Assembly (NCBI GenBank): GCA_043818055.1
Contig: JBDRGF010000033.1
Coordinates: 32,001 to 96,000, forward strand
Reading direction: 5' to 3'
Source: Pseudomonadota bacterium
GTDB lineage: Bacteria; UBA10199; 2-02-FULL-44-16; JBDRGF01
DNA: 64,000 bases
Each line of letters opens with the position of its first letter. Position 1 is the first letter of the stretch. The notes beneath the pieces are model-generated. The model saw only the letters and a list, made by a program, of their open reading frames with translations, had not been told where the DNA came from and searched no databases. The translations under genes were made by a program, and so were the position numbers. Shown one piece after another: positions 11,522-41,810 of this stretch.

Positions 11522-12364
11522 ATGTCAAACGGAAAATTGTTTCTAACACCAGCGGAGGTACACAAAGCGGTATGCGATGTAGGTGCGGTCAAGACACAGT
11601 TATCAGCCTTTAAGATGATTCTGCTTGGAATTCTGGCCGGCGTCTATATCGGCTTCGGAGCGCATCTTTGTACCACAGTTGTAACAGGGATTGCACCCTT
11701 GGTCGGTTTTGGCATCACAAAGTTTTTGGGCGGCGCGGTATTTAGCGTAGGCCTGATGCTTGTCGTCATCGCCGGTTCCGAGCTCTTCACAGGCAACTGC
11801 ATGATTCCTTCAGCATGTTGCCACGGCCACGCAAAGTGGAGCCACATGATGAAGAACTGGACACTGGTATTTGTGGGGAACCTTTTAGGTTCGCTTCTTT
11901 TGGTCATCATCATCTACAACACAGGGCTCACATCAAATGATACAGTCGGAGTGACAGCGTTAAAAATCGCTTATAGCAAGGTTCATCTTGATTTCTGGCC
12001 TGCACTCTTCAGAGGTATTTGCTGTAACTGGTTGGTGTGTCTGGCTGTTGTTATTGCAACTTCAGCTCAATCCGTCGCCGGCAAGGTATGGGGCATCTTT
12101 TTCCCGATCATGGCCTTCGTCGCTTCCGGTTTCGAACATAGCATTGCCAACATGTACTTCATCCCGGCTGGCATTCTTGCCAAGGGAACAGCAGCTGGCG
12201 CAGCGTTCGTAACAGCCAACAGCGGCGCTGATCTGTCAACTCTCAACTGGGTAAGCATGTGGGATAATATCATTCCGGTAACCATCGGAAACATCATCGG
12301 CGGAGCGTTCTTCGTCGGCATGTGGTACTGGTACATCTACATGAGAGATACAAAGAAGGCTTAA
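11522..12364 (+). CDS. Formate/nitrite transporter (FdhC/FocA family)
   Basis: GSELFTGN, GICCNWLVCLA, FEHSIANM, TIGNIIGG; strong RBS aaggagg. Confidence 0.93.
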   Translation: MSNGKLFLTPAEVHKAVCDVGAVKTQLSAFKMILLGILAGVYIGFGAHLCTTVVTGIAPLVGFGITKFLGGAVFSVGLMLVVIAGSELFTGNCMIPSACCHGHAKWSHMMKNWTLVFVGNLLGSLLLVIIIYNTGLTSNDTVGVTALKIAYSKVHLDFWPALFRGICCNWLVCLAVVIATSAQSVAGKVWGIFFPIMAFVASGFEHSIANMYFIPAGILAKGTAAGAAFVTANSGADLSTLNWVSMWDNIIPVTIGNIIGGAFFVGMWYWYIYMRDTKKA

Positions 12365-12390: not shown

Positions 12391-12421
12391 ACCCTCTTGG
12401 AGCAATCCAGGAGGGTTTTTT
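12391..12421 (+). terminator. Rho-independent terminator after the FNT gene
   Basis: accctcttgga-gcaa-tccaggagggt followed by a T-run. Confidence 0.8.
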
Positions 12422-12496
12422 GCTTATATGTCGGCTTTAAATTCTACTTGGAAATTAATGTAACATTTTTGATACATATGTACCAAAAATGTTACA

Positions 12497-13306
12497 TTAT
12501 CTTTGCCCGATATATTGAAAATCGTCACTTATACAAATTTCAGGAAGGTATGTTGCTCGGATTATCCTTTGTGGAATTTTTTGATCAAACAGTTGAAGCA
12601 AATATTTGAGAGTTCCTGCTATTCCGTGTTTATATTTATTGGCTTTCAAAATAATATCGTTATATTCAATTCCAATTGAAAAGCCTCGTTGGTGAATAAT
12701 CTCGTTATCTCTGTATCTCTGTAAAACTTTAAAATCCTCCCAAAATCTTTGACTTTTATCAAAAACAATTCCTGTGAATTTGGGAATCCAAAAGTCAATT
12801 TTATCATCAAAACCTACTTTCATCTCTTTTGAATCATTCAGGTTGTCATTTGGATAATTATCATTCCAAATTTGTGCTTTTTCATTGATAAACGCTTCAA
12901 TGCTTGCAACGCCAAATACTATCGCTGTTTGTATATCCTGAATTATTCCTATTTCAATTCCTGTGTAAAGTCTTGAGAGCGAATAATTAAAAGAATGCAT
13001 ATAAGGACTAAAAGCAATGATGCCCGGGGCTTCAATTGTTTGTCCGATCTCTTGTTTTGGTAGTAATGTTTTGCCGTTAAATTTTCCGAGTTCACAAGCA
13101 GCTGAGAAACTTCCACCTAGAACATCTTCTACTAATGGTACACCTTCGTGAAAATTCCTACATTTCTCGACTGTTTTATTAAATATTTCTCCAGAATATC
13201 CCTGGTCTATATACAGTTGAATGACATCATCGATATCACCAAACTTTTCAGGATCGTCACTTTGAGCTAATTCCAGAATTAATTGTTTTGTTGCATTGAC
13301 TGACAT
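12497..13306 (-). CDS. Hypothetical protein with possible HEPN-like C-terminal domain
   Basis: AIVFGVASIEAFIN helix and RDNEIIH (Rx5H) motif; AT-rich; start uncertain (13306 or 13345). Confidence 0.5.
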   Translation of the reverse strand: MSVNATKQLILELAQSDDPEKFGDIDDVIQLYIDQGYSGEIFNKTVEKCRNFHEGVPLVEDVLGGSFSAACELGKFNGKTLLPKQEIGQTIEAPGIIAFSPYMHSFNYSLSRLYTGIEIGIIQDIQTAIVFGVASIEAFINEKAQIWNDNYPNDNLNDSKEMKVGFDDKIDFWIPKFTGIVFDKSQRFWEDFKVLQRYRDNEIIHQRGFSIGIEYNDIILKANKYKHGIAGTLKYLLQLFDQKIPQRIIRATYLPEICISDDFQYIGQR

Positions 13307-13438
13307 TTTTTTAAAAGAAATTTTGTCATACAATAATTTTAACACACCATTTACTGCTTAACACTTATAACTTATATCAGCTCAACACCATACACATCGA
13401 CTCGTTAGTAAGTCACCAAAAATTCTAAAAGCACCAAA

Positions 13439-14638
13439 TTATTTTACAACAAATGTAACTTGACTACTTATACTCTTTAGCAACATGTTCAACTCCAGAT
13501 AACCATCTGTTTTTAAAATAAAATAACCAAATCTAGACGTAAGATCTACAAACTTTTTAACATAATCCCCTTTACTAACTCCTATATTCCACTCTACGAC
13601 TTTAGGATTGTTTAGTACTTCCAAATTTTTAATTTCTAGTAGTTGCCCTGACTTCGATGAAGTAAAATTATTAATGGCAGAAAGATACCTACTATTAACA
13701 TTTAAATTTACATGGCCATTAGTTAATACGTTAAGGTATGCTTCATAAAAATTAAACTGGTAGCTATTTGTTATCAAATCTGGCAATAGACTCCCTGGTA
13801 AACGCCCTGCGCATTCAACCAGAATAATTTTGTCATCTTGTAACATCCATTCAGCATGTAGCACTCCATTTTCTACTTCAAGTGCTTTCGCAAGTCTTGT
13901 TTGATTCTCAATAATTTTAGCTCTTTGTAAGGAATTGAGATCTTTAGGTACTATGCGAATTTGCTTCGTTGAATAATCTGTGACATTTAGAAATATTATT
14001 TCTTTATTCTTTACCAAACATTCTACACTTACCTCATTACCTTCAATAAACTCTTCAACCATGAATTCCCATTTTATCGGACGATCAACAACTAATGGTT
14101 CTGTGGCATTAACTGTTAAATTAAATGTTTTCTCAATGTCATTTGGTGAGGAGATTTTATTAACACCAATACTCCCATCACGATTAGCCGGTTTAAAAAT
14201 GACGGGAACATCCTCGAAAAAATCCTTCAATTCCTCAAGAGATTCAATTTTTTTAAACAAAGGAGAATTAATCCCTGCCTTCAAACACAGCTCACGCAAT
14301 GTTAATTTATTCGTTAAGCATTGAGCGGCTTTCTCCCCCAATCTTGGCAATCCCAATAATTCAGCAGCTCGGCTTGCTGCGAGCACTCCAGCTTCACGTG
14401 CCGCGACAACACCAGAAAATTTGACTTGTGCACTCCACTCTTTAACAACACTCAAATATTCTTCACTCTGATGATATTTCGCTAATTTCAGACCCTTTAT
14501 TGATGCAAACGCGTATTTCGATTTATCGTCTTTTAGATAAACGTCCTCTTCCTCAATTAAATATACGTTTATTTTAACGTTACTTTTTTCAAGGGCTCGA
14601 ATAAAATATCTTTGGCGACCAATCATTAATATATTCAC
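13439..14638 (-). CDS. ATP-grasp ligase (L-amino-acid-ligase-like)
   Basis: NKLTLR, IFKPANRDGSIGV, VEEFIEGNEVSVE, HAEW, VECAGRLPG. Confidence 0.85.
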   Translation of the reverse strand: MNILMIGRQRYFIRALEKSNVKINVYLIEEEDVYLKDDKSKYAFASIKGLKLAKYHQSEEYLSVVKEWSAQVKFSGVVAAREAGVLAASRAAELLGLPRLGEKAAQCLTNKLTLRELCLKAGINSPLFKKIESLEELKDFFEDVPVIFKPANRDGSIGVNKISSPNDIEKTFNLTVNATEPLVVDRPIKWEFMVEEFIEGNEVSVECLVKNKEIIFLNVTDYSTKQIRIVPKDLNSLQRAKIIENQTRLAKALEVENGVLHAEWMLQDDKIILVECAGRLPGSLLPDLITNSYQFNFYEAYLNVLTNGHVNLNVNSRYLSAINNFTSSKSGQLLEIKNLEVLNNPKVVEWNIGVSKGDYVKKFVDLTSRFGYFILKTDGYLELNMLLKSISSQVTFVVK

Positions 14639-16620
14639 TCTTTCCCTCCTAATTTGATTTCTTTCATAAGATGATCATAACCTTTTCTAATATTAGATAA
14701 TATTTCATTTAAATCCTCACGCAGAGGTTTTTGCGACAAATTTAATTTTCCATAAATAAATTCAGAGCAGGCTGGCACAAAGAGAAAGAGAATCCCAAGA
14801 AGATATTTCACAGCACGTTGAAGTATAATTTTTTCCCCATTTTCTAACTGCAAATCTTTTTCAAGCCAGACTCTTGGAATTGTTTTTCTTACAAGTGTCT
14901 CCACAACCAAGCGAGATTTAACATATTCAAACCGAGCTAAATGCTGGTCAATTTTATTAAGAACACCCACCAAATCAGTTACAACTTGCTTCAACAGCTT
15001 TTCATCGCCCCCCCCATTGATAAGTGTCTCGCCTTCGGCCATTGATGCAGACAAAATTAATTCAATGAAGTTATTGAGTTTCTTAGTCACATTATTGCCT
15101 AGTCTCAATTCAGCCTCAACTAAGGTACGATCTCGTCCAAGAGCAGTACCCAATGCCCACCATCTCACATTATCAGTCGAATACATATTAATATAAGGCG
15201 TAATATTTCCTGGCGAAAGAACTCTTTCTTTAAATGAATTACCATCTCCTTGTAAGTAACCATGAGAAACTATTATATCAGGTTTCAAAACCCAATCAAT
15301 CAAAGTGGAAAGAACAATTGTGCTATAATGCCAGCATTTTGCGCTTGCCAAACGATGAATCCTCACAATTTTCGATGGCACCTTTTTTAGCCTGCTGGCA
15401 ACTAAAGTGGCTGACATCGCTGCAACAAACATCGTATCCAAAACCATTATCTTCCCGTCCTCATTCTTATTGTCATTATTCCATACAATGTCACCATTTC
15501 CTAAAAATCCAAATGGACTCAAAACTCCAAATTTTCTAGATCTCGTAATGGGCCAATCATCACCTGTATCTGTCAAAAATTGGTGTAATATATTCAATCC
15601 CGTTTTGGGGTACCATTCAATTGATTGAGCGCTTGCCTTTATATCATTTATTTTATCTCGCAACTTAACAGTTACAGTAGGTTCGGAAGAGATTAACACC
15701 GTGTCATTACAGGTTTTATGTTTAGTCAGAAGCATGGAAATTTCCATCGTATCAGTAGAAATTTTCGGTAAAGGTATCTTTTGGAGCACTGATCGCGAAT
15801 AAATACTTATGCCAAGTTTCTTCATAGCTTTTTTGTGCAATGAGAAATACCAAGGTGATAGTTCGGGCCCAACTAGTACATATGAGTTGTTGGGAAAATT
15901 AGGCAAATAGGCTTTCAATACAGGAATCCTCGCATTGTTTATGACAAGAGGTTCCATTAAAGACATTTCTTTCATTGGTGATGAAACGGTTTGAATAAGA
16001 CAAGAAAAATATGAATCTTTTTTTTCTTCAGGTATGATCAGCTCAAAGCGTTTCCCCGAAACAGTTAGAGTATATTTGTTAATTACTCTTTTCTCATGGA
16101 TCTCATATAGCTGATGATGCAATACCTCTTTTCCACAACTTGGGCATCTCAATGAGTAACGAACGCCAGAATATATCAACCCTTTTTCCATTAATTCTTT
16201 ACATACATTATATGCTAAAATTTGAGTTTCCGACTGCACTGATGCATATTCATGGGACCAATGAGGAACATATCCTAAGCGTAAAAATTGTTTTTTTATC
16301 AATTTGATTCGATCCGCAACCTCATCATTGCACTGCTGCACATCGCCATCAAGAAGGTTTTCCAGCTCAATACTGTGACAGTCAAACCCCTGTGGCAACA
16401 AAACAGATATACCTTTTGATTCTAACCATAATGAATACGTCTCAGCTAAAACATGTGGAATAGCGTGATGAAGATGCAAAAACCGATCGGTGTATGGCGG
16501 TGGAGTGTCAATCAATACATCAACAGGCTCAAGCAAACTTCTATGGACGTTCTCCCACCGTTTTTGAGCATAGGCTTCGACATCAGACAAAATGATAGAT
16601 TTATTTGTTGAATAAAGCAT
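14635..16620 (-). CDS. Degenerate class Ia aminoacyl-tRNA-synthetase-like protein (ValRS-like paralog)
   Basis: DTPPPY..LHLHHA (HIGH-like), PQGFDCH, DWPITRSRKFG, VLDTMF. The KMSKS position reads ERVLSPGN. Confidence 0.72.
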   Translation of the reverse strand: MLYSTNKSIILSDVEAYAQKRWENVHRSLLEPVDVLIDTPPPYTDRFLHLHHAIPHVLAETYSLWLESKGISVLLPQGFDCHSIELENLLDGDVQQCNDEVADRIKLIKKQFLRLGYVPHWSHEYASVQSETQILAYNVCKELMEKGLIYSGVRYSLRCPSCGKEVLHHQLYEIHEKRVINKYTLTVSGKRFELIIPEEKKDSYFSCLIQTVSSPMKEMSLMEPLVINNARIPVLKAYLPNFPNNSYVLVGPELSPWYFSLHKKAMKKLGISIYSRSVLQKIPLPKISTDTMEISMLLTKHKTCNDTVLISSEPTVTVKLRDKINDIKASAQSIEWYPKTGLNILHQFLTDTGDDWPITRSRKFGVLSPFGFLGNGDIVWNNDNKNEDGKIMVLDTMFVAAMSATLVASRLKKVPSKIVRIHRLASAKCWHYSTIVLSTLIDWVLKPDIIVSHGYLQGDGNSFKERVLSPGNITPYINMYSTDNVRWWALGTALGRDRTLVEAELRLGNNVTKKLNNFIELILSASMAEGETLINGGGDEKLLKQVVTDLVGVLNKIDQHLARFEYVKSRLVVETLVRKTIPRVWLEKDLQLENGEKIILQRAVKYLLGILFLFVPACSEFIYGKLNLSQKPLREDLNEILSNIRKGYDHLMKEIKLGGKE

Positions 16621-18025
16621 AGGGTAATTCAGTTTTATCCATGTAATTCATTTTTTTATCCAGCTGTGTCAAATCCTTATCTAATCCTTGCCAACGCCAT
16701 GAATACACCCTCATAAAATCCTCTTCTGAATTAACTATTTTCGGAAGAATTTTAGAAAGAGCAAACATCTGCTTATAGCTAAAATCAAAGGAGGGATTTA
16801 TTTTCAGGTGATCCCATTCAAGGTTAGAATCAGCCAAGGAGATGGAGGTACCATATTTTTTTTCATAATGCTTCAAGTTTCTGAATATTTCAGCTCCGGG
16901 AAAGGCATATAACGCACTACAGGTCAGAAAACCGATCTTCTTTTTGTTCTTCAAAATAAATTCGATTGTCTTCGATAAGGTTTCAGGAGTTTCTCCGATA
17001 TAGCCAATGATGAAGTTGCACCACAACTTGACCCCATTCTCATAAAAAAGATCTATTAATTCTTGGGACCTACACAAGTATTCTTTTGGATTTCGTGTCT
17101 TATTCATCCGCAACAGGATCTCTTCGCTCGCAGATTCCACCCCAAAATACACGCTGGTTATGTCCAGTTGTTTTAGATACTCGATCCATTTTTCATAATT
17201 AATATCACATCTTGTATACGCTTGAATAAGCAATTTATCCTTATGCGGAATAAGGTTTTCTAATAACTTCAACGTATTGCTCTCATCCATTCCAAATGTT
17301 GAGCATCCAATATTAACAAACAATTTTTCTTCATTATAGAGTTTATAAACTTCCAGAATCTCTGCAATAACATTCTGCCATTTTTTAATTTTAATTTTTT
17401 GCTTTGAGTCACTGTTAACGCAAAAATTGCATCGAAATGGACACCCCCTACTCTCCTCAACAGTAGGAATTTTTTGTGAATAGTTATTTAACAACTTATA
17501 GTTCAATGATCCCAGCTGTTCGAATGACAAAGATTTAGGAGGATTTACAACAATTTTATTGTTCGATTTATACACCAAACCAGGTGAATTTAAATAATCA
17601 GAGTCAGGAAAATTCCTTATCAGGTGCAATACTGTGGACTCGCCTTCATCGAAACACGCATACTTCAACTCTGGAATTTGGCTAAAAACATTCTCCCTCA
17701 ATCCGATGACATGCTGCCCGCCAACGATAACAAGCGTCTCTTTGAAATCGCTAAGTGCCTTAACCGCCGTCATCAAAGAACCATAGGAAAAGGATGAAGT
17801 ACAATTGATCGCTATAATCTTTACTGTATTGTTTTTCACAAAATCCAGGAGCTCACTCAAAAAGTTCTTTTCATGTTGGAAATCGAGTAGTTTAACCTTG
17901 TAACCATTATTGTATACGTAACTCGCAATAGATAGTATCCCAACGTTGATATTATTCTTTGTGTGCTTTGGATAATTCGTTTCCACAAGAGGATCGATAA
18001 TTACCAAATCATATACTTCACTCAT
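16601..18025 (-). CDS. Cobalamin-binding radical SAM enzyme (class B methyltransferase-like)
   Basis: N-terminal B12-binding region (GILSIASY, IVGGQH, EGE), ESRGCPFRCNFC, FGVESAS, IIGYIGET. Confidence 0.88.
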   Translation of the reverse strand: MSEVYDLVIIDPLVETNYPKHTKNNINVGILSIASYVYNNGYKVKLLDFQHEKNFLSELLDFVKNNTVKIIAINCTSSFSYGSLMTAVKALSDFKETLVIVGGQHVIGLRENVFSQIPELKYACFDEGESTVLHLIRNFPDSDYLNSPGLVYKSNNKIVVNPPKSLSFEQLGSLNYKLLNNYSQKIPTVEESRGCPFRCNFCVNSDSKQKIKIKKWQNVIAEILEVYKLYNEEKLFVNIGCSTFGMDESNTLKLLENLIPHKDKLLIQAYTRCDINYEKWIEYLKQLDITSVYFGVESASEEILLRMNKTRNPKEYLCRSQELIDLFYENGVKLWCNFIIGYIGETPETLSKTIEFILKNKKKIGFLTCSALYAFPGAEIFRNLKHYEKKYGTSISLADSNLEWDHLKINPSFDFSYKQMFALSKILPKIVNSEEDFMRVYSWRWQGLDKDLTQLDKKMNYMDKTELPYALFNK

Positions 18026-18041
18026 AAAACCCTCGTTTCAA

Positions 18042-19154
18042 TTAATGTTGTTCAACATCATCAGAAGCTCCGCCATAGCAATCGTTGTTGTAGTTATATT
18101 TCATAATAGGACAAAGTGGTATAATGACATTTTCCTCACATCTCGGATCTTTGATATTGATTTTATCCTTAAGCAGTTTTGCATATCCGATGCATCCACC
18201 ACCACACAAATTCCAGTGTCGACAATCACCACACTCTGATTTGATATACGACCTGTTTAATTGCTTCCAATTGGAATCGTCACCAATGATATCTTTGAGT
18301 GCGTATTGATTGACATTACCGAGAACAATCGGAACATCGAGCCCAAAAACGCATGGATAAACATTACCATCGCAACGTATCATTATGTATGTCCTCGTTT
18401 TAAATATTTGACTACATCCACCACCACAACCACTAAACTCAGAAATATCGATATTGGGAGTTTCTTTCCATTTCATATACGCAGGCTCAATAATGATATC
18501 CACATCACCTATTCTCTTATTCTTTCTTTTTTCAAGGATCCGTTTTGAAATTTGTTCATATCCATTTAGATACTCTTCAGGTAAGATCCAAAGATCGGGA
18601 TATTTGGCTCCCCGCCCTATCGCTGAAAAATAAAACCCAGAAACACACCTAACCCCCAAATTGCTCAGTTTTTCGACCAAGCCCGGGAAAGTAAAAAGTG
18701 TCTTCTTATTTAAAACGGCGTTAACTCTAACCTTCCAATTTAGATTCAGTGCAACCGCAATAGCCTGCATTGCCTTTTCATAAGCACCTTTACCACGGAT
18801 ATAATCGTTAATTTCTTTGTCTGATGAATCAATGCTGATCATGATTGATTGAAGCCCTAATTCTGAAAGCTCTTCTGCATATTTCTGGCTGAGCAAAACG
18901 CCGTTTGTTTGAAGGCGCACCTCAATGTTCAAATCTTTACAGTAAGCAAGAACGATTTTCAGATCTTCTCTCAACAAGGGCTCACCACCAGTTAAGTGTA
19001 TATGTTCCATTCCAAGCTCTTTGGCTTGATTAATGACATCTATAATTTGGTCAGTAGAAAGCTCAGGCAACTTCAGTTCATTCGATGAAAAACAACAAAC
19101 CTTACAGCTAAGATTACACCTATTAGTCATATGAAGATCGAGTTCTTTAAGCAT
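18042..19154 (-). CDS. Radical SAM/SPASM-domain enzyme
   Basis: CNLSCKVC, TGGEPLLR, GNVYPC...CGDCRHWNLCGGGC...DPRC. Confidence 0.9.
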   Translation of the reverse strand: MLKELDLHMTNRCNLSCKVCCFSSNELKLPELSTDQIIDVINQAKELGMEHIHLTGGEPLLREDLKIVLAYCKDLNIEVRLQTNGVLLSQKYAEELSELGLQSIMISIDSSDKEINDYIRGKGAYEKAMQAIAVALNLNWKVRVNAVLNKKTLFTFPGLVEKLSNLGVRCVSGFYFSAIGRGAKYPDLWILPEEYLNGYEQISKRILEKRKNKRIGDVDIIIEPAYMKWKETPNIDISEFSGCGGGCSQIFKTRTYIMIRCDGNVYPCVFGLDVPIVLGNVNQYALKDIIGDDSNWKQLNRSYIKSECGDCRHWNLCGGGCIGYAKLLKDKINIKDPRCEENVIIPLCPIMKYNYNNDCYGGASDDVEQH

Positions 19155-20145
19155 CGGTAATACCTTTTTTGTATGCCTCCGCAGCGATAAGACAAAGTGA
19201 ATCAACACCCAATCCACCTCTCTCTATAAAACTGCTCGCGGGACATCCCTTTTTGCAGTTGGTTGAAAAATCACAATTCAAACAAGCTGTATTTGCATTT
19301 TTTATTGCCTCAGAACGAAACGCTTTTAGCTTCGACCAGGACTCCTTGCCCAACTGACTCAAAAGAATGCAAGGTAAAAATTCTCCTTTTGCATCAAGGG
19401 CAAATATCGAGTTGCCAGCATCACATTCACAAAAGGGCATATTTGAAATGGTCCTCTTTGTGTTAATTGTCAAAGATGTATATTTCTTTCTGCAGTCATT
19501 AAGTATTTTACTTAATTGTGCTTGTGTTGTTGCATTGGCAAGAAAATTACTTTTAGTATTGTATGGCATCAAACCTAATAGCGTAACGGACTCAACACCC
19601 AACTGATGACACATTGCTATTGTTTCTGTGAGCGTGGCCATTGTTTCTTCAGTCAACACAGAGATGATATGAATCATCAATCCATTCTTAATTAGCAATT
19701 CTATTGCCTTGATTGTCTTACCCCAAGCCCCAATCTGTTTTCTGTGTTTATCGTGAACGCTTGCATTTGAGCTTTCCAGCGAAACAGAGATTTCACTTAA
19801 ATAAGATGCTAATATTTTTACATTCCCTTCATTCACCAATGTTGCATTCGTACAGATATCCACATTAAAATTTGACTGATGCAATCTTTGGATGAGTTCC
19901 TCCAACCAAGGTAGCAAAAGTGGTTCACCCCCTGAAAGAATGACGTCTTTAATTCCTTGTCTTTTCAGAAATGGAATTGTGTTAAGCGCGTCTTCATAAC
20001 TCCATTCAGCAACCGATTGCCCATAGCGGTGACATGTCGGACAGTTCAAATTACACCTTGTCGTAAGCTCCCAAAGCAATCGTCTATCCGTGCTTTTGTT
20101 TGGGCTGCGGAAACAACATATGCTGTTGTAATAGTTGTCTGTCAT
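19147..20145 (-). CDS. Radical SAM/SPASM-domain enzyme
   Basis: WELTTRCNLNCPTC, SGGEPL, CDAG...LPC...CLNCDFSTNCKKGC...DSLC. Confidence 0.9.
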   Translation of the reverse strand: MTDNYYNSICCFRSPNKSTDRRLLWELTTRCNLNCPTCHRYGQSVAEWSYEDALNTIPFLKRQGIKDVILSGGEPLLLPWLEELIQRLHQSNFNVDICTNATLVNEGNVKILASYLSEISVSLESSNASVHDKHRKQIGAWGKTIKAIELLIKNGLMIHIISVLTEETMATLTETIAMCHQLGVESVTLLGLMPYNTKSNFLANATTQAQLSKILNDCRKKYTSLTINTKRTISNMPFCECDAGNSIFALDAKGEFLPCILLSQLGKESWSKLKAFRSEAIKNANTACLNCDFSTNCKKGCPASSFIERGGLGVDSLCLIAAEAYKKGITDA

Positions 20146-20155
20146 AGTAATTCCA

Positions 20156-21262
20156 TTAATATAAATGTGGATAAAAAATTAATGTTGGCAAATACCCATC
20201 ATGTATCGAAATCCGATTTGAAACATTCATGTCCTTTAACTCTGGTAATTCAGAAAGATCTACGTTGCTATTTTCACGAAACGGACAGTAAGGATCCCTT
20301 TCGGATAACGCGTTATAATAAAGTATTCTTCGATCCTTGACCCCTCCTTTACACGTTGTCTCAAATTCACACTCCTTGCACAATGCAGGCTTTACAGTTT
20401 CACGCAGTAATGCAAATTGCTGCCTCTCTCCAATTCGATCAAGAATCTGATTTTCAAGAATACTACCAGCTATCCAATCCCTTCCGACCAAATAGGTTGA
20501 CGGCGTGATATCGCCGGTTGGCAAAATTCTTAAACTTGAAACACCAGACATATCATCAGAAATTCGAGATTGTTTAAAAATACTTGAAAAGAGAGGATCT
20601 GAAAGTACAGCAACTTTGTAACGTTTCATTATCCATGAAAGAGCTTTATAGACTGTCTTTGAAGAAGGGGGAGATAACCGATTATTCGTAGGACGAAATA
20701 GATTAATGCGCACCATGGCATTGTGCTGTGATGCTACATCAAAAATCCCTTTTAAATTTTCTTTGGTGAGGGTATCCTCAATTCCAATCATTACTATCGT
20801 GCTTTTAATATTAGCTTGTGTGCAAAAATCTAAAGTTCCAATCGCCCACTCAAAAGCGCTTTCATGTCCTCTTATTTTATTGTGTTTGTTTGGATTTGAG
20901 TAGTCAAGAGATACATCAATTTCATTTATACATCTGCTCACTAGATTTTGATAGAATGAGTCATTTTTCACGACTTCAAACAAATAACCATTTGTTGTAA
21001 GTGCCTGTAATATATTAGGAAAATACTTACGCGCATAATCAATTAAATCGAACCAAATTGGAGTTAGAGCATTTTCTCCTGTGCCGTAGTTTATTGAATC
21101 AATATAATTGTGATTATTAGAAATAAAATTTCGTAATGTATCTAAATTAAGAGTATCCTTACCTTCTCGCGCATCAATGCTGTAACAAAATGAACATCTC
21201 ATGTTACATGCTTTTGTGATTCCCCATCCAATTTGCCATTTAGTTCCCAACTGACAATTCAT
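20156..21262 (-). CDS. Radical SAM/SPASM-domain enzyme (partly degenerate SPASM)
   Basis: CNMRCSFC, YGTGEN, CKECEFETTCKGG...DPYC. Confidence 0.88.
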   Translation of the reverse strand: MNCQLGTKWQIGWGITKACNMRCSFCYSIDAREGKDTLNLDTLRNFISNNHNYIDSINYGTGENALTPIWFDLIDYARKYFPNILQALTTNGYLFEVVKNDSFYQNLVSRCINEIDVSLDYSNPNKHNKIRGHESAFEWAIGTLDFCTQANIKSTIVMIGIEDTLTKENLKGIFDVASQHNAMVRINLFRPTNNRLSPPSSKTVYKALSWIMKRYKVAVLSDPLFSSIFKQSRISDDMSGVSSLRILPTGDITPSTYLVGRDWIAGSILENQILDRIGERQQFALLRETVKPALCKECEFETTCKGGVKDRRILYYNALSERDPYCPFRENSNVDLSELPELKDMNVSNRISIHDGYLPTLIFYPHLY

Positions 21263-21319
21263 AATTACTTACCCCAAATATTATTTTGTAACAGATAAAT
21301 CAATCAACCTTAAACACTC

Positions 21320-21335
21320 GCAAAAATTATGCCAA
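21320..21335 (-). promoter_or_regulatory. Sigma54 (-24/-12) promoter of the radical SAM operon
   Basis: TTGGCATAATTTTTGC has exact GG-N10-GC spacing, ~58 bp upstream of the ATG at 21262. Confidence 0.75.
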
Positions 21336-21407
21336 AATGGTAAAAAACATAACCATTTGAAATTATACTTGTTTTTTTTAAAAATCGTTAATAACAATTA
21401 ATTATTT

Positions 21408-21445
21408 GTCCAAAAAATCGGACTCGAGAGTCCAGAAAATCAGAC
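21408..21445. promoter_or_regulatory. Putative tandem upstream activator sites for a sigma54 enhancer-binding protein
   Basis: GTCCaaaaaatcGGAC and GTCCagaaaatcAGAC, 22 bp apart; IHF-like TTTCAAATGGTTA (minus strand, ~21350-21362) lies between them and the promoter. Confidence 0.5.
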
Positions 21446-21499
21446 ACTCCAGATCGAACGGTTATATCAAAGGATGGATTTTAATAAAAAATTAAACAA

Positions 21500-23008
21500 T
21501 TATATTTTCTTCCATTCTGTCTTTTGAGAAGTATCTCTAATCTCAATTCCTAAGTCTCGTAACATGTTGCGAATTCGATCCGCTTGTTTGAAGTTCTTTG
21601 TTTTGCGAGCTTCATTTCTCTCTGAAATGAGATTTTCAATTTTTCGGATGAAATTAGCATCCACCTCTTCGACTCCATAGTCAAAAATAACGCCTAGAAT
21701 GGAATCAAAAACTTTTAAAACCTGTAAACAAGTTTTAGCTTGTTCTTTTGAAAGCATACCAACTGAATTTATTTTTGTCACAAAATTAAAAACGTACGCC
21801 AAACTCCCTGATATATTTAAATTATCATTTAAAGAATCGACAAACCCAGTTTGTGCTTCACAGCAGATCTTAGAAATATTAACCTCAACATCCTCATGGA
21901 TCGAACCCTTCTCGTATGCAAGCAACTTGTCCCTCAATTCCACCAAACGGTTAATGTTGCTTTTCGCTTGGCCTAGCGAAGTTAATGTAAAATTCATAGT
22001 TTGAGCATAATGCGTTGTCATGAGTGCCCACCTGATTGCAAGAGGATGATGTCCCATATTGATTAGATCTCGAATTGTATAAAAATTACCCTTTGACTTA
22101 CTCATCTTTTCGCCATCCACAAGCAAGAACTTCGCGTGTATCCAGTAATTGACGAAAGGTGCACCATTAGCACACATGGATTGAGCTATTTCGCATTCAT
22201 GATGCGGAAACTTATTATCCTCTCCACCAGTATGAATATCGATCGTATCGCCTAGCAATTCCTTTATCATAGCCGAACATTCTATGTGCCAGCCTGGAAA
22301 ACCGACACCCAACTCAGTCTCCCACTTCATAATATGCGTGTCGTCCTTCTTCCAAAGTGCGAAATCATAAGGATTTCTTTTAATGGCGGACTTAATTTCA
22401 TCTATGCGCCCGCCAGCTCCCGTCTTTAAAGATTCCATGGTATTATTTGACAAACGACCGTATTCCTTAAATGAAGAAATATCAAAATAATATGCGCCAT
22501 CAGATGCCTTATACGCATAGCCCTTGTCGATAAGAGCTTTAATCATCTTAACCATTGTATCGATATGTTCAGTCGCTCTTGGAAAACTCATCGGCTTTTT
22601 AAGATTGAGGGCATTAAAATCTTCCTTGAATGCTTTGATATAAAAGTCAGCAACATCCCATGGAGACTTAAAATCAAGATCCTTATATCCCTCCTTGCGA
22701 CCAGCTTTTTTCGATTTCAGCTGATTTACAGCGAGAGTCATTTTATCCTCTCCGCCACCTTCAGGGAAATCATCGTTAGTCATGTGACCTACATCGGTTA
22801 TATTCATAACTTGCTGCACTTCATATCCGTTTTGCTCCAAAACTCTCCGAAGCAAATCAGCCATAAGAAAGGTTCTAAAATTACCGATGTGAGCATAGTC
22901 ATAGACTGTAGGACCACAATTATACATCTTAACAATAGGATGACTGATAGCTCTGAATGGAGTTAGGCTGTTTGTGAAACTATTATATAATGTCAGTTCC
23001 TTAGTCAT
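21500..23008 (-). CDS. cysS: Cysteine--tRNA ligase (island-encoded, possibly a second copy)
   Basis: CGPTVYDYAHIGN, DFALWK, PGWHIECSAM, FPHHECE, KMSKS all intact. Confidence 0.95.
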   Translation of the reverse strand: MTKELTLYNSFTNSLTPFRAISHPIVKMYNCGPTVYDYAHIGNFRTFLMADLLRRVLEQNGYEVQQVMNITDVGHMTNDDFPEGGGEDKMTLAVNQLKSKKAGRKEGYKDLDFKSPWDVADFYIKAFKEDFNALNLKKPMSFPRATEHIDTMVKMIKALIDKGYAYKASDGAYYFDISSFKEYGRLSNNTMESLKTGAGGRIDEIKSAIKRNPYDFALWKKDDTHIMKWETELGVGFPGWHIECSAMIKELLGDTIDIHTGGEDNKFPHHECEIAQSMCANGAPFVNYWIHAKFLLVDGEKMSKSKGNFYTIRDLINMGHHPLAIRWALMTTHYAQTMNFTLTSLGQAKSNINRLVELRDKLLAYEKGSIHEDVEVNISKICCEAQTGFVDSLNDNLNISGSLAYVFNFVTKINSVGMLSKEQAKTCLQVLKVFDSILGVIFDYGVEEVDANFIRKIENLISERNEARKTKNFKQADRIRNMLRDLGIEIRDTSQKTEWKKI

Positions 23009-23145
23009 AGTGTTTTAATAACTATAATGAAGTCCATGTGATTGTCTATATCAAAAATTTGTTTTTTATATGGTGGCTTGACAGAAAATAGAGAAACTGT
23101 CACTAATAAGCGCATATCCTTATTGGAAAGGGTTTTTAAAAAACT

Positions 23146-24324
23146 ATGAATTTTATATACACATTTTTGAAACCAGCTCAAAGCAATTTTGAATTGTTGA
23201 AGAAATGGAGTACCATTTCGATTTACAATCCAGAAAATCCCGTAGTAGTTAAAATCACAGTTCCTTTAGGCGAAGTCTTTCAGAAGAATCAATTTGTTTT
23301 AATTGGGAATTCTCTCACAGGAGAGTATAAAAAAGCGATTAGTTCAGCTGCTATCAAGGGATACGAACTGTTACGAAACTCAGCTGAACAAGCGATCAAG
23401 CTTAAAACTCACACAGAAGTTTCGGATCCACACGGACAAATTGTAAAAACCTTTGATGAAGCCGCCAAACTCATTATGGAGCAATTGACACTTTTAGAAA
23501 AAACGGAATCCACAGATGCATTTCAAATTATAATTCCGCTTCAATTAGATACTTCTATTCAATTTAAAAACATGACAAGTCTACAGATCAAAAAAATGCT
23601 AGAGGCTGGCTGGAAAAGTGTAATTGTGCCAAGTGGTGCAATTGAACAACATGGCCCCCACTTGCCAATGAACACTGATATCTATTTAGCAACGGTGCTT
23701 TCAAATTTAATAGCTCAGGAATTAGGAATGATGTTAGTCTCATATGGAATTGCTCCCGGATGCTCTGACAATCATCTTCCTTTTGCCGGCACGCTATCGT
23801 TGGACCAAGATACATTCAAATCTGTACTAAAGAGGATGACTCGCAATTTGATCTCTCATGGTTTCAAAGAAATCATACACTTTCCTTTCCATGGAGGTAA
23901 TTTTAATCCAACTCAAGAAGCAATTAGAGAGCTGAGAGCCGAATTTGAAACACAAAAAATCAAAATTATAGGCCCAAAACAAGGCAGTATGGACAAGAAA
24001 GACTTTTTTAATACCCTAGAATCTGCTTTGCATATACACTTTCCTGACAAACCTGATGACTGGCACGCAGGTTGTATTGAAACATCGATGATGCTATATG
24101 CTGATCCTTTTCTTGTAAGAAAGGAATTGGTCGAAGTTGGTTACACTGGAAAACCAATCCCGTCTGAAATTGTGAACCGAGAAGGTCTTAATAAGTATAC
24201 GGCTAACGGCATTTGGGGGGATCCAGTTGGATATAGCATAGAATTAGGTGCTTTAATCTTTCGAAAACTGATTGCCAGAGCTATCCAACATATAGAATCT
24301 GAAAGAAACAAAAACGTTACCTAG
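23146..24324 (+). CDS. Creatininase-family amidohydrolase with ~140-aa unknown N-terminal extension
   Basis: GAIEQHGPHLPMNTD, FAGTLSL, HGGN, DWHAGCIETS, NGIWGDP. Confidence 0.85.
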   Translation: MNFIYTFLKPAQSNFELLKKWSTISIYNPENPVVVKITVPLGEVFQKNQFVLIGNSLTGEYKKAISSAAIKGYELLRNSAEQAIKLKTHTEVSDPHGQIVKTFDEAAKLIMEQLTLLEKTESTDAFQIIIPLQLDTSIQFKNMTSLQIKKMLEAGWKSVIVPSGAIEQHGPHLPMNTDIYLATVLSNLIAQELGMMLVSYGIAPGCSDNHLPFAGTLSLDQDTFKSVLKRMTRNLISHGFKEIIHFPFHGGNFNPTQEAIRELRAEFETQKIKIIGPKQGSMDKKDFFNTLESALHIHFPDKPDDWHAGCIETSMMLYADPFLVRKELVEVGYTGKPIPSEIVNREGLNKYTANGIWGDPVGYSIELGALIFRKLIARAIQHIESERNKNVT

Positions 24325-24370
24325 TTACAAGCTATAACTTTTTTTTAAATTTAGCTAAGTTGAATATATC

Positions 24371-25639
24371 ATGATAAAGAAACTGTTATCGATTCCCACC
24401 TTATATAAAAAAGCTCCAAAGGAAATATACATTCTCGCTTTGTCTAGAATAATTAACAGCTCAGGCAATTTTGTTTATCCCTTTCTAGCCCTCTTTATTA
24501 CACAAAAATTACAGCTATCTGCGAAAACAGCGGGAACGGCTGTTCTTCTTGTTTCAATTGCTTCGATTCTTGGCACATTAGTTGGTGGGAAACTAACGGA
24601 TCATAGTCGGCTTGGTCGGAAAAAAATTATGATTATCGCACAATTCTTTTGTGCCATAAACTTAATTCTGTGTACTCAGTTCGCCCATTCATACATAATT
24701 TTATTCTTTATTTTTATTTCACATTTTTTCCATGGAATCTTTAGCCCAGCAAATAAAGCAATGGCAATAGACTTGACGGATAAAAACAATAGGTATCCTT
24801 CATTCTCCTTAATTTATTTGGGACATAATATAGGCTGTTCTATAGGACCTCTTTTAGCTGGTTTTCTATTTAAAAATTATATCATGTGGTTATTTATTGG
24901 AGACGCACTAACTACACTTATTTCAGCTTTAATCATTGCAATATTTCTACATGAAACGCGTCCATCAAACGAGAAGATAGAGTCGAGCTACACAAAACAA
25001 TCACAGGAACGAGCCGAACAAGGCAATGTCTTTGTCAGTTTATTTAAAAGACCCAACCTCTTGTTTTTTGTTGTATTACTTATCATTCTACAAATTGTTT
25101 ATTCTCAGCGACATTTTTCACTTCCATTGCAGTTAAATCTCATTTATGGAAATACTGAAGGTCCAATTCTTTTTGGAACTATGATGACAATAAATTCATT
25201 GTTTGTGATCGCTTTTACTACCATAATCACTTCATTCACAAACAAGTTCAATCCTCTTATAAATGAATCTATCGCTAGCATATTTTATGCTCTGGGATTC
25301 GGAATGATCATTTTCACCCACTCTATTCCGTTCTTCATAATTTCTACATCTCTATGGACAATTGGTGAAATTCTATATTCCACCAATTCTTCTGTTTATA
25401 TCGCTAACCACACTCCTATTTCACATAGAGGAAGATTTAATGCGATTATACCCTTAGCAATGTATGTTGGATATGGACTTGGTCCATTATTAATGGGAAA
25501 AGTTATCGAATTACATAATCTCCAATATGTATGGATATCAACTTTTCTCCTAGCATCATTCGCAGCTTTTGCATTATGGACATTGCACATCTTAGAAAAA
25601 ACAAAACTGCAAACTGTGTTTAATAATGTTTCCAATTGA
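24371..25639 (+). CDS. MFS transporter (probable exporter)
   Basis: About 12 hydrophobic segments, GGKLTD..LGRKK motif A, NIGCSIGPLLAG, HRGRF. Confidence 0.9.
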   Translation: MIKKLLSIPTLYKKAPKEIYILALSRIINSSGNFVYPFLALFITQKLQLSAKTAGTAVLLVSIASILGTLVGGKLTDHSRLGRKKIMIIAQFFCAINLILCTQFAHSYIILFFIFISHFFHGIFSPANKAMAIDLTDKNNRYPSFSLIYLGHNIGCSIGPLLAGFLFKNYIMWLFIGDALTTLISALIIAIFLHETRPSNEKIESSYTKQSQERAEQGNVFVSLFKRPNLLFFVVLLIILQIVYSQRHFSLPLQLNLIYGNTEGPILFGTMMTINSLFVIAFTTIITSFTNKFNPLINESIASIFYALGFGMIIFTHSIPFFIISTSLWTIGEILYSTNSSVYIANHTPISHRGRFNAIIPLAMYVGYGLGPLLMGKVIELHNLQYVWISTFLLASFAAFALWTLHILEKTKLQTVFNNVSN

Positions 25640-25682
25640 GAATGCAATTTTGCGATAATCTTTTAGAAAGAGTGAATTTTGT

Positions 25683-26879
25683 ATGAAAGAAAATATACTA
25701 ATTTTGAATAACGCCAGATATGAGCACTACTATAAGAATAAAAAACCAATTATTGACTATAATCGTTACAACGTTTTTTTTATAACAAAAAAAGAATACG
25801 CTGCTGAAATTCCAGATAATGATTACTCAGAACTTCACTCCATCAATATGAGTGACAGCGACGCTGTATTCGAATTAGCAAGAAATATTCATTTAAGGTA
25901 TTTTATCAATCGTGTCATTGCACTATCCGAAAGTAACATTTTGGATGCAGCACGAATTAGAGAATTTTGTGGGTGTAAAGGAATGCCATTTAACCAAGTG
26001 CTAATATTAAGAGATAAATGTTTAATGAAAGAATACCTCAGTGGTAAAGGAATTAACGTCCCTGCATTTAAAAAATTATACTCAACTCAGAATGCCATAG
26101 AGTTTTACCAATTATATGGTAGAGTTGTGATCAAACCTGCGTTAGGAATGGGATCAAAGAATACCTACATTATTGATACAGAGACTAAGTTCAACTTAGC
26201 GTTAAAATGTATTAATAATAGCATTCTTGATTACGAAATTGAGGAATTTGTTGATGGAGATATGTATCATTGCGATTCCATCATAGTGGATGGACATGTT
26301 AAACTATGTAGCGTTAGTAAATATCTTGATTCCACATGCGGTTATTTAGAGAGTCAACCACTTGCATCAGTTATGGAAGATGACGAAAACATCTGCTCTA
26401 GGTTACAGACTTTTAACAGCATGATTCTTAAAGCTTTCGGCATCAAAAATGATGTTACACATCTTGAGGTCTTCTATAAGGATTCTAATATCGTATTTTG
26501 TGAAATTGCAATAAGAACAGGAGGGGGAGGAATTATTGATTCAGTTGAGCAGAAATATTCAATCAATCTCATGGAAACCCATCTCAAACTCCAACTTTCA
26601 CAATGTGAAAAATTACAACTATGTAGCAGAGATCTTTACAGTGGATTTGTTATGTTTTATGCGAAACCAGGGATAGTAGTCAATATTACACCGGCCGATA
26701 AATTTAATCAGGAATGGATATCTAAATTTAAAGTCTACATCAAAAAAGGCGATCGAGTCATTTTACCAAAATATAATGGAAAACCAGCCGCCATAGTAAT
26801 CATCGTTGGAAAGACGAAAGACGATTTGATCAATAAAGTTGAATGGGTAAAAAGCAATTTCAGAATTAGCTACATTTAA
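25683..26879 (+). CDS. ATP-grasp ligase (L-amino-acid-ligase-like)
   Basis: RDKCLMK, VIKPALGMGS, IEEFVDG, HLEVF, FCEIAIRTGG. Confidence 0.85.
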   Translation: MKENILILNNARYEHYYKNKKPIIDYNRYNVFFITKKEYAAEIPDNDYSELHSINMSDSDAVFELARNIHLRYFINRVIALSESNILDAARIREFCGCKGMPFNQVLILRDKCLMKEYLSGKGINVPAFKKLYSTQNAIEFYQLYGRVVIKPALGMGSKNTYIIDTETKFNLALKCINNSILDYEIEEFVDGDMYHCDSIIVDGHVKLCSVSKYLDSTCGYLESQPLASVMEDDENICSRLQTFNSMILKAFGIKNDVTHLEVFYKDSNIVFCEIAIRTGGGGIIDSVEQKYSINLMETHLKLQLSQCEKLQLCSRDLYSGFVMFYAKPGIVVNITPADKFNQEWISKFKVYIKKGDRVILPKYNGKPAAIVIIVGKTKDDLINKVEWVKSNFRISYI

Positions 26880-27017
26880 AAACATTTATTTGTTCTTTCA
26901 CCACTAGTACCGAATAAATTAAAAACAAGCGCTGTTTGAATCGATGACGGTGTGATATTCTGATGCTTGAAGCGGCGTTTAAAATCATAAGATTTCAATG
27001 TCAAATATTACCACTCA

Positions 27018-28058
27018 TCACCCCACCAGTTCAATTCTTTCACCCTCTGTCAACTCACCAAATGAATTTATCGCATGTTCAGCAAGCCCCATTTTTCTAG
27101 CAACTCTGATATATTCTTCCACATTTGAAGGATCGACTGCGACAAGCAATCCACCCGATGTCTGCGGGTCGGCTAAAATCTTTTGATTCTCCCCTGTGAG
27201 ACCTTCGACATGATGGCCATAGCTCCTAACATTTCGAAATGTTCCTCCGGGACAGCACTCTTTGTCGAGATAGTATTCAACTTCTTTAAGCAGAGGGACA
27301 TCATCAACTCTAATTACAGCTTTGAGCTTCGATCCTTGAGCCATTTCAAGGAGATGTCCCAAGAGTCCAAACCCGGTGACGTCGGTCATCGCGTGCACAC
27401 ATGATAGCTTTCCAAAGGCCTCACCTGCGCGATTCAATGCTGTCATTATCTCTACCGCTTTTCCTTCATCTGTCGGCTTTAGCACTCCGTGTTTTTGGGC
27501 GCTCGTGAGGATGCCTATACCAAGCGGCTTTGTGAGAAATAAAAGGTCCCCTGCCTTTGCGCCGTCATTTCTTTTTATATGGGCCTTTTTTATGGTGCCG
27601 TTCACGGCCAATCCAAATATCGGCTCAGGTGAATCAATGCTGTGTCCGCCGGCCAGCGGAATGTTCGCATCTTTGCAGACTTCGCTAGCCCCCCTCATCA
27701 CCTCCCTTGCAACATCGGGTGATAATTTATCTATCGGCCAGCCCAGGATCGATATCGCAAGGATCGGAGTCCCTCCCATCGCATACACGTCGCTGATCGA
27801 ATTCGTTGCAGCTACCCTGCCGAAATCGTATGGATCATCGACGATCGGCATGAAGAAATCGGTCGTACTGATCAGCGCCTCTCCGTTCCCCAGATCGACA
27901 ACGGCGGCATCATCCTTGCTCTCGTTGCCAACGATGAGATTTGGGAATTTCGTGTTGTTTTTCCCCTCTAAGATCTTCTCCAGCACATCAGGCGCGATCT
28001 TGCACCCGCACCCTGCCCCGTGGCTGTATTGTGTCAGTCGAACATTTTTTTTATCCAT
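27018..28058 (-). CDS. selD: Selenide, water dikinase (Cys-type)
   Basis: [51 protein letters not shown]. Confidence 0.97.
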
Positions 28059-28169
28059 AACGTTTTCTACCTTTTTTCTCAAGACTGTTCGAAAATGCTG
28101 AGGGAGTTCACCCGCCTCAACTTCCCCGTTATGCAACGGGAGAAGCCTTGTCAAGAGAAGTGATTCTGA

Positions 28170-30473: not shown

Positions 30474-30600
30474 CCAATATCGGAGCTTTATTTGAGTCTC
30501 ATCTCTGAGATGATCATTAAACCTATCCCTCCAAATTAATTTTGAACTTAAATCGTTGTCTTTATTAAATAGTCTAAAAAGTTCATGCCATTTTTTAAAG

Positions 30601-34828: not shown

Positions 34829-34921
34829 ATGCTGTGCGCTATGGGCTTTGCGCCATGCGTTTTAAAAGCGCATAGCGCACGACACAAAACGCATAGCAGT
34901 TCATTTTTAAGGAGGAAATAC

Positions 34922-41649: not shown

Positions 41650-41718
41650 ATGTAATAAATTATTTCCTTAATAACTTACGCACTCAAGCACTTCTACACT
41701 TAAACACTGTTTTTCTTG

Positions 41719-41810
41719 CAGAGAGGGCAGGAATCGAACCTGCCACAGACGGTTTTATCCGGCCGCTACTGGCTTTGAAGGCCAGCTAAAACACCAGTTT
41801 ATTCCTCTCT
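41719..41810 (-). tRNA. selC: tRNA-Sec (anticodon UCA)
   Basis: CTGGC-CTTCAAA-GCCAG anticodon arm, long variable arm, GCAGG-TTCGATT-CCTGC T-arm, G discriminator; directly upstream of selA; CCA not encoded. Confidence 0.93.

Follow-up and report, generated by a model that had tools for sequence, protein, structure and literature searches.

The cysS gene studied here, which encodes a cysteinyl-tRNA synthetase (CysRS), lies in a 14.5-kb island (positions 12401–26900) of the 64,000-nucleotide stretch of DNA from a groundwater bacterium that we analysed (the window). A left arm of biosynthetic genes runs from 21262 down to 12497, a right arm occupies 23146–26879, and cysS sits between them (Table 1). 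The GC content of the island is 0.357, compared with 0.433 for the genome; just two of 683 genome segments of this length, with the island's own contig included, have a GC content as low as 0.362. The flanking genes, focA and selD, are host-type. In all four relatives that have it, focA adjoins formate dehydrogenase or selenocysteine genes, in differing orders, indicating that the island interrupts this block. None of these four relatives provides a clean empty site. No convincing repeats were found at the island boundaries, no integrase among its genes, and no tRNA or RNA family within it, and PADLOC returned generic radical SAM matches only. The island is likely biosynthetic and horizontally acquired.

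Table 1. Genes and intergenic regions of the island and its immediate flanks (window positions)
Feature	Position	Strand	Basis or remark
Formate/nitrite transporter focA, left flank, host-type	11522..12364	+	GC3s 0.54
282-aa protein, no known family	12497..13345	-	Lowest GC3 of the island
ATP-grasp ligase with L-amino-acid-ligase C2 domain	13439..14638	-	Domain match
Degenerate ValRS/IleRS-fold protein, 661 aa	14635..16620	-	Fold and motif comparison
B12-binding radical SAM enzyme, likely methyltransferase	16601..18025	-	Below all family cut-offs
Radical SAM/SPASM enzyme C	18042..19217	-	Family match
Radical SAM/SPASM-type enzyme B	19147..20145	-	Family match
Radical SAM/SPASM enzyme A	20156..21262	-	Uncharacterised family
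AT-rich gap between cysS and left arm, 237 bp	21263..21499	-	Consensus matches only
Second full-length CysRS, foreign origin	21500..23008	-	TIGR00435, motifs, trees
Region between divergent starts of cysS and right arm, 137 bp	23009..23145	.	Sigma-70-like site
Creatininase/MftE-family amidohydrolase, metal motifs present	23146..24324	+	Family match
MFS transporter, likely exporter	24371..25639	+	Family match
Second ATP-grasp ligase	25683..26879	+	24% identical to first
selD, right flank, host-type	27018..28154	-	GC3s 0.49

The radical SAM A family comprises 574 matches, the named ones in Bacillota, Chloroflexota, and Fusobacteriota. Its members carry an invariant C-terminal HDGYLPTxF motif and have neither a named family nor a solved relative. 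The two ATP-grasp ligases have weak BacD and DdaF matches that fall far below the family cut-offs. The creatininase-family protein begins with ∼140 residues (23146–23580, + strand) that match nothing in Pfam or NCBIfam. Pathway membership of the 282-aa protein is uncertain, and its predicted structure (pLDDT 32) is too poor for use. No nucleoside-handling enzyme is recognisable among the island genes, and the gaps between them contain no convincing precursor ORF.

Two intergenic regions border cysS. The divergent region upstream holds a sigma-70-like site (TAGACA-16-TATAGT), but such sites were found 48 times against 57 expected, so this one is no better than chance. In the AT-rich gap downstream, a hairpin and T run (21434–21419) and a promoter-like site (21391–21362), both consensus matches only, suggest a possible transcript boundary, and the cysS transcript may thus be separate from that of the left arm. 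In an RNA run, 28 of the 30 island bins are covered, that of cysS among them, but by assembled contigs rather than expression reads.

Several further features of this genome deserve mention. At the left island edge, a near-perfect 44-bp palindrome (12456–12499; 22-nt arms, 95%) comes just after a hairpin and T run 3′ of focA, and the loose end of one contig from the RNA run falls within it, at 12461. Two large low-GC genes at 28170–32826 (- strand) lack a Pfam match and have a paralogous pair on contig C137 (32–39% identity). The formate dehydrogenase alpha subunit (34829–37660, + strand) is encoded by two ORFs separated by 12 bp, with selA, selB, selD, and tRNA-Sec (41718–41808) nearby; the two ORFs are probably one selenoprotein read through UGA. 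Finally, contig C159 carries at least seven radical SAM matches close together at about 34.8–46.5 kb, three of them B12-type, and this group is possibly a second biosynthetic cluster.

Sequence and origin of the island CysRS

The island gene encodes a complete CysRS of 502 aa, which scores 462.8 bits against the cysS model TIGR00435 (cut-off 340) over residues 5–501. An earlier note on this DNA, made from the sequence alone, described the catalytic and zinc-ligand motifs as intact, the base composition as that of the island, and the gene as lying between two biosynthetic arms, all of which hold. In an alignment to E. coli CysRS (1li5_A), the island enzyme has HIGN at 40–43 and KMSKS at 301, and its residues C31, C244, H269, and E273 correspond to the zinc ligands C28, C209, H234, and E238. 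The tryptophan and histidines of the cysteine pocket (W240, H241, H259, and H270) are kept, and R464, R468, D477, R480, and D492 correspond to R423, R427, D436, R439, and D451 of the anticodon domain; we take the E. coli residues to have these zinc, pocket, and anticodon roles. The C-terminal anticodon-binding domain is also matched by PF23493. Since motifs, pocket, and anticodon residues are all kept, the island enzyme is by sequence a normal tRNA-charging CysRS. An MshC-like ligase is ruled out by the anticodon domain and by a score of 227 bits against the MshC model TIGR03447, below its cut-off of 485.

The HIGN motif and HHECE (in place of HHENE) are common to the island enzyme and 17 aligned relatives and are therefore traits of this CysRS subfamily, whose motifs in the island protein read NITDVGH and GGEDNxFPHHECEIAQ. 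The island CysRS departs from its clade at seven of 165 conserved columns, compared with 5–13 departures in ten relatives and 28 in an eleventh. It thus displays no excess change at conserved sites, and no resistance signature was found at these columns.

The composition of cysS falls within the island range, at a GC content of 0.383 and a GC3s of 0.334 (13th and 14th percentiles of 1684 genome ORFs), although few of the 11 island genes are less extreme. Its codon score (+0.012) is exceeded by roughly 14–21% of genome genes, and only two island genes have a weaker island-like score. The corresponding values for the housekeeping cysS are 0.455 and 0.503.

This housekeeping gene lies on another contig of the host genome (G000:C125:32258–33721) and was found by the search for a second cysS that the earlier note had proposed. 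Its product is 32% identical to the island CysRS. The locus has the order carD-ispD-ispF-cysS, with neighbour names read from the sequences, and the same order is present in the relative G010. In a quick tree of 70 rows, the housekeeping copy clusters with 13 of 14 host-phylum sequences. The island copy instead belongs to a clade of 12 members (support 98) that is placed among sequences from Planctomycetota, Patescibacteria, and archaea, and its branch is somewhat longer (0.52, versus 0.33–0.46 for three of four sisters). With a subset of 24 rows, the AU test rejects both a clade of island and housekeeping copies (p = 4e-37) and a clade of the island copy with the host phylum (p = 3e-61). No island-type CysRS was found in the 92 other host-phylum genomes at E ≤ 1e-85. 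The case that the earlier note had named against itself, a sole, vertically inherited cysS, is rejected by the C125 copy and the AU test. As the vertically inherited gene is on C125, the island cysS is an extra copy of foreign origin.

The class that includes G061 (locus L016, titled Pseudobdellovibrionaceae) was represented by 131 genomes, and close relatives of the island CysRS occur in three of them, namely G061 (53%), G062 (60%), and G063 (61%). In each of these genomes, for which completeness is not given, the island-like CysRS is the only cysS above the cut-off, and it lies outside biosynthetic clusters of the island type. The G062 and G063 genes have a common context unrelated to the island, and none of the three genomes has close homologues of four tested island genes. 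The closest relatives are thus apparent housekeeping genes in variable surroundings, and a dedicated clade of cluster-type CysRS is unsupported. In two scans of sequence collections with the clade alignment, most of the matches listed were cysS genes of Planctomycetota, Patescibacteria, and archaea. Of 175 loci compared, only the window's own had a cluster-like set of island homologues. On plasmids there was no close CysRS, the best match being 39%. Second full-length copies are rare: one was found among 60 relatives (in G010), and none in the donor-like class (131 genomes, E ≤ 1e-40). The G010 gene (L005, G010:C403:1140–2431) is foreign in type and directly follows a cysteine-synthase-like gene, besides a canonical copy.

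The ValRS-fold partner and the occurrence of the cluster

The 661-aa protein of the left arm has a TM score of 0.79 to ValRS models but falls far below the Val, Ile, and Leu family cut-offs; its own predicted structure (pLDDT 43) is too poor for use. Only one close homologue was found, P0122 (38%). In both proteins, HLHH replaces HXGH, the KMSKS loop has become xxFKE (NSFKE in the island protein), and the threonine-rich and GTG motifs of the CP1 editing domain are gone. The island protein retains a helical anticodon-type domain, and the host genome has its own ValRS, IleRS, and LeuRS. As judged from its motifs, the protein is a repurposed synthetase; known from two sequences, it arguably stands out as the island's most novel gene product. 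According to the available part of one study, the third-position glycine of HXGH packs against and accommodates adenine, and a histidine there abolishes IleRS1 activity but is tolerated in IleRS2 (PMC10485003). This tolerance suggests that the ValRS-fold partner may activate its own amino acid. ValRS misactivates cysteine, from which comes the idea that the protein might accept cysteine or methylated cysteine; the literature in the form accessible to us offered no support for such use.

Outside the Bacillota and Chloroflexota, where the radical SAM A family is commonest, a search with its profile (E ≤ 1e-40) across 92 + 301 + 131 + 401 genomes and viral contigs revealed no further copy of the cluster. 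The profile matched one of 93 host-phylum genomes (the host itself), none of 301, none of 131, and one of 401, the last a distant match in an unrelated context; matches to viral contigs were weak only. Two plasmid matches (26%) belong to other clusters without a synthetase. The ATP-grasp ligases matched 77 plasmid records, and all five neighbourhoods examined are small-molecule clusters with an MFS gene, four of them with several ATP-grasp-type genes and none with a synthetase listed.

Near-identical island DNA occurs in groundwater and biofilm sequencing runs (10 runs of six studies). Four compared runs cover 30, 30, 28, and 17 of 30 bins, and the one that matches best is perhaps from the source sample itself. 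A diverged strain is present in one run, where 38 differences affect 37 codons in the MFS gene and three of the radical SAM genes (38 of the 40 listed differences were used, from low-depth contigs). Twenty-seven of these codons are synonymous and 10 non-synonymous, with no stop and none in cysS. These neighbouring cluster genes are under purifying selection.

Possible roles of the island CysRS

We tentatively favour, with somewhat less than even confidence, a reading in which the island CysRS would supply activated cysteine to the pathway and perhaps also provide immunity, by analogy with AbmK of albomycin and AcmD of ascamycin. Like any CysRS, it would make Cys-AMP and Cys-tRNA(Cys). The ValRS-fold protein would then serve as a transferase, passing the cysteinyl group on to a small acceptor (compare the pairs AbmF/AbmK and AcmF/AcmD), the four radical SAM enzymes would build or tailor an unusual residue, the warhead, and the two ATP-grasp ligases would add amino acids as carrier residues to give a short peptide. 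The MFS protein could export this product, and the creatininase-like enzyme might trim or deprotect an amide. Should the product block the housekeeping enzyme, the island CysRS would also give immunity.

One argument for this donor role is the presence of an intact CysRS together with a synthetase-like protein, for which the available parts of the literature provide precedents. In albomycin, AbmF receives seryl-adenylate from AbmK, which also confers resistance (PMC8323819, PMC9032320), and in ascamycin, AcmF is provided with Ala-tRNA by AcmD, which is also the more resistant enzyme (PMC12945691). As in such systems, the island holds a second copy of distinct origin in a cluster with a synthetase-like enzyme and an exporter; the partner is of the Val/Ile family, however, rather than that of CysRS. 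Because second cysS copies are rare, a chance landing in the middle of a cluster with a synthetase-like protein is less likely. The MFS-containing clusters in all five ATP-grasp plasmid neighbourhoods and the purifying selection on the cluster genes also count in its favour. Against a donor role we count the nearest relatives, which are sole cysS genes outside clusters, the lack of a second cluster copy in the genomes searched, the family mismatch, the lack of a recognisable nucleoside enzyme among the island genes and of a synthetase in the plasmid clusters, the possible transcript boundary after cysS, and the unremarkable divergence at conserved columns. The CysRS itself is ordinary, the cluster is a singleton from an uncultured organism, and it is by location and by analogy that cysS is linked with the pathway.

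The earlier note held that the product derives from cysteine or Cys-tRNA or else inhibits CysRS. A pathway or immunity role is plausible, but that statement omitted a further option, that of a housekeeping cysS of the donor lineage carried in with the island or inserted into it, redundant and without a part in the pathway. Such a passenger, which we judge somewhat unlikely, has to be considered because the nearest relatives look like housekeeping genes and the genomes searched yielded no further cluster copy. It would agree with the ordinary divergence of cysS, its possible separate transcript, its codon score (weakest of the island but for two), and the second cysS of G010 beside a cysteine-synthase-like gene. 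The central position of cysS, its sharing of the 137-bp divergent region with the right arm, the rarity of second copies, and the synthetase-derived protein in the same island all speak against it. Moreover, resistant synthetases are often ordinary enzymes from another lineage, ∼30% identical to the housekeeping copy, according to the part of one source available to us (PMC9437257).

Immunity alone, with no donor function, is a reading that we consider unlikely. Here a cysteine antimetabolite or Cys-AMP mimic would be made independently of the CysRS, the ValRS-fold protein would activate a substrate of its own, which may be methylated, and the foreign enzyme would simply be insensitive, as AgnB2 is in agrocin 84. 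With its full anticodon domain, the island CysRS could replace the housekeeping enzyme, and the 32% identity between the two copies matches known pairs of sensitive and resistant enzymes in the same part of that source (PMC9437257). The ATP-grasp ligases and MFS protein are suggestive of a peptide-delivered warhead. On the other side stand the missing resistance signature at the conserved columns and the lack of recognised nucleoside enzymes in the island, and no natural CysRS inhibitor was found in the literature, seen mostly as titles and abstracts and with few subscription journals. A bolder form of the donor reading appears doubtful to us: the product would be a peptide-delivered CysRS inhibitor, and the borrowed CysRS, besides conferring immunity, would load a new ValRS-derived transferase across synthetase families.

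The earlier note also drew an analogy with 3-thiaglutamate (pearlin) clusters, where it took dedicated CysRS genes to occur; in such a pathway, Cys-tRNA would be used on a scaffold peptide. An intact CysRS could make Cys-tRNA, and SPASM enzymes and MftE-like hydrolases are common in peptide-derived pathways. The PEARL families PF04738 and PF14028 (Lant_dehydr_N/C), however, have no match in the 93.6%-complete host genome (a search without a positive control) or among the island genes, the TglH family PF05114 has none in the host genome (one of 14 control genomes matched), and the island gaps lack a convincing precursor ORF. With neither PEARL nor TglH found in these searches, the pearlin analogy is largely refuted, and we regard it as very improbable. 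An assembly or binning artefact that placed the island or cysS in the wrong organism is equally improbable. The genome is metagenome-assembled (93.6% complete, 2.7% contamination) and no contig of the compared runs spans the whole island; nonetheless, the island lies within a 116-kb contig with host-type genes on both sides, runs of two studies (one perhaps the source sample) cover all 30 bins and both flanks with near-identical contigs, and one run contig joins the 5′ end of cysS to the divergent gap. A CysRS*-type system that inserts cysteine at UGA codons, suggested by the position of the island in a formate dehydrogenase and selenocysteine block with selD, selA, selB, and tRNA-Sec in the window, merits almost no credence, as enzymes of that type, described in the accessible part of PMC9437257, have no anticodon domain and are accompanied by selC* and selB*, whereas the island CysRS has a complete domain, selA, selB, and selD are single-copy with no extra selB* or selC*, and the one tRNA-Sec found is of the ordinary type.

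Comparison with known systems

Extra synthetases in biosynthetic clusters are a known kind, as far as the available parts of two sources describe them (PMC9437257, PMC13518217), and for several antibiotics they have given a clue to the target or to the building block. The cysteine case, if true, would mean either a natural CysRS inhibitor or a new route by which a ValRS-derived enzyme feeds cysteine into a pathway of radical SAM and ATP-grasp enzymes. A cluster that combines an extra CysRS with a ValRS-like enzyme was not found in the literature, which was covered mostly as titles and abstracts with few subscription journals.

The enzyme itself resembles the Planctomycetota-type housekeeping CysRS subfamily in motifs, tree position, and domain set, but it is a second copy within an island, whereas the subfamily member is the sole cysS in its genomes. 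The 3-thiaglutamate tgl cluster would likewise use Cys-tRNA; its descriptions, in the parts available, list tglA, B, E, F, G, H, and I and name no CysRS gene (PMC9016710, PMC10989515), and no PEARL, TglHI, or scaffold peptide was found here. Among ATP-grasp short-peptide clusters, that of fuscazine has two ATP-grasp ligases, as does the island, and a MetRS-like enzyme (PMC13149037, seen in part). Compared with fuscazine and with the bacilysin and dapdiamide types, the island lacks a hydrazine cassette and has an intact extra CysRS.

Given the ValRS-fold neighbour, the albomycin and ascamycin pattern fits better than the analogies of the earlier note. Agrocin 84, as far as the sources at hand describe it, shares with the island an intact extra synthetase (AgnB2, a resistant LeuRS), a synthetase-like protein (AgnA), and an exporter. 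There AgnB2 provides immunity with no donor role shown, the product is a nucleotide, the synthetases are of other families, and no ATP-grasp and SPASM set is described. In ascamycin, an intact extra synthetase (AcmD) likewise stands beside a degenerate synthetase-like protein (AcmF), but both derive from class II AlaRS and the acceptor is a nucleoside sulfamate (PMC12945691, in the part available); the island pairs CysRS with a class I Val/Ile-family protein and has no recognised nucleoside genes. Albomycin, in the available descriptions, combines an extra synthetase that is both donor and immunity enzyme (AbmK, SerRS2), the synthetase-like, amide-forming AbmF, and a radical SAM enzyme. The island differs from it in lacking a PLP transaldolase or epimerase, a siderophore NRPS, and a nucleoside kinase, and its ValRS-fold protein is likened to AbmF by role in the proposed scheme, not by sequence comparison.
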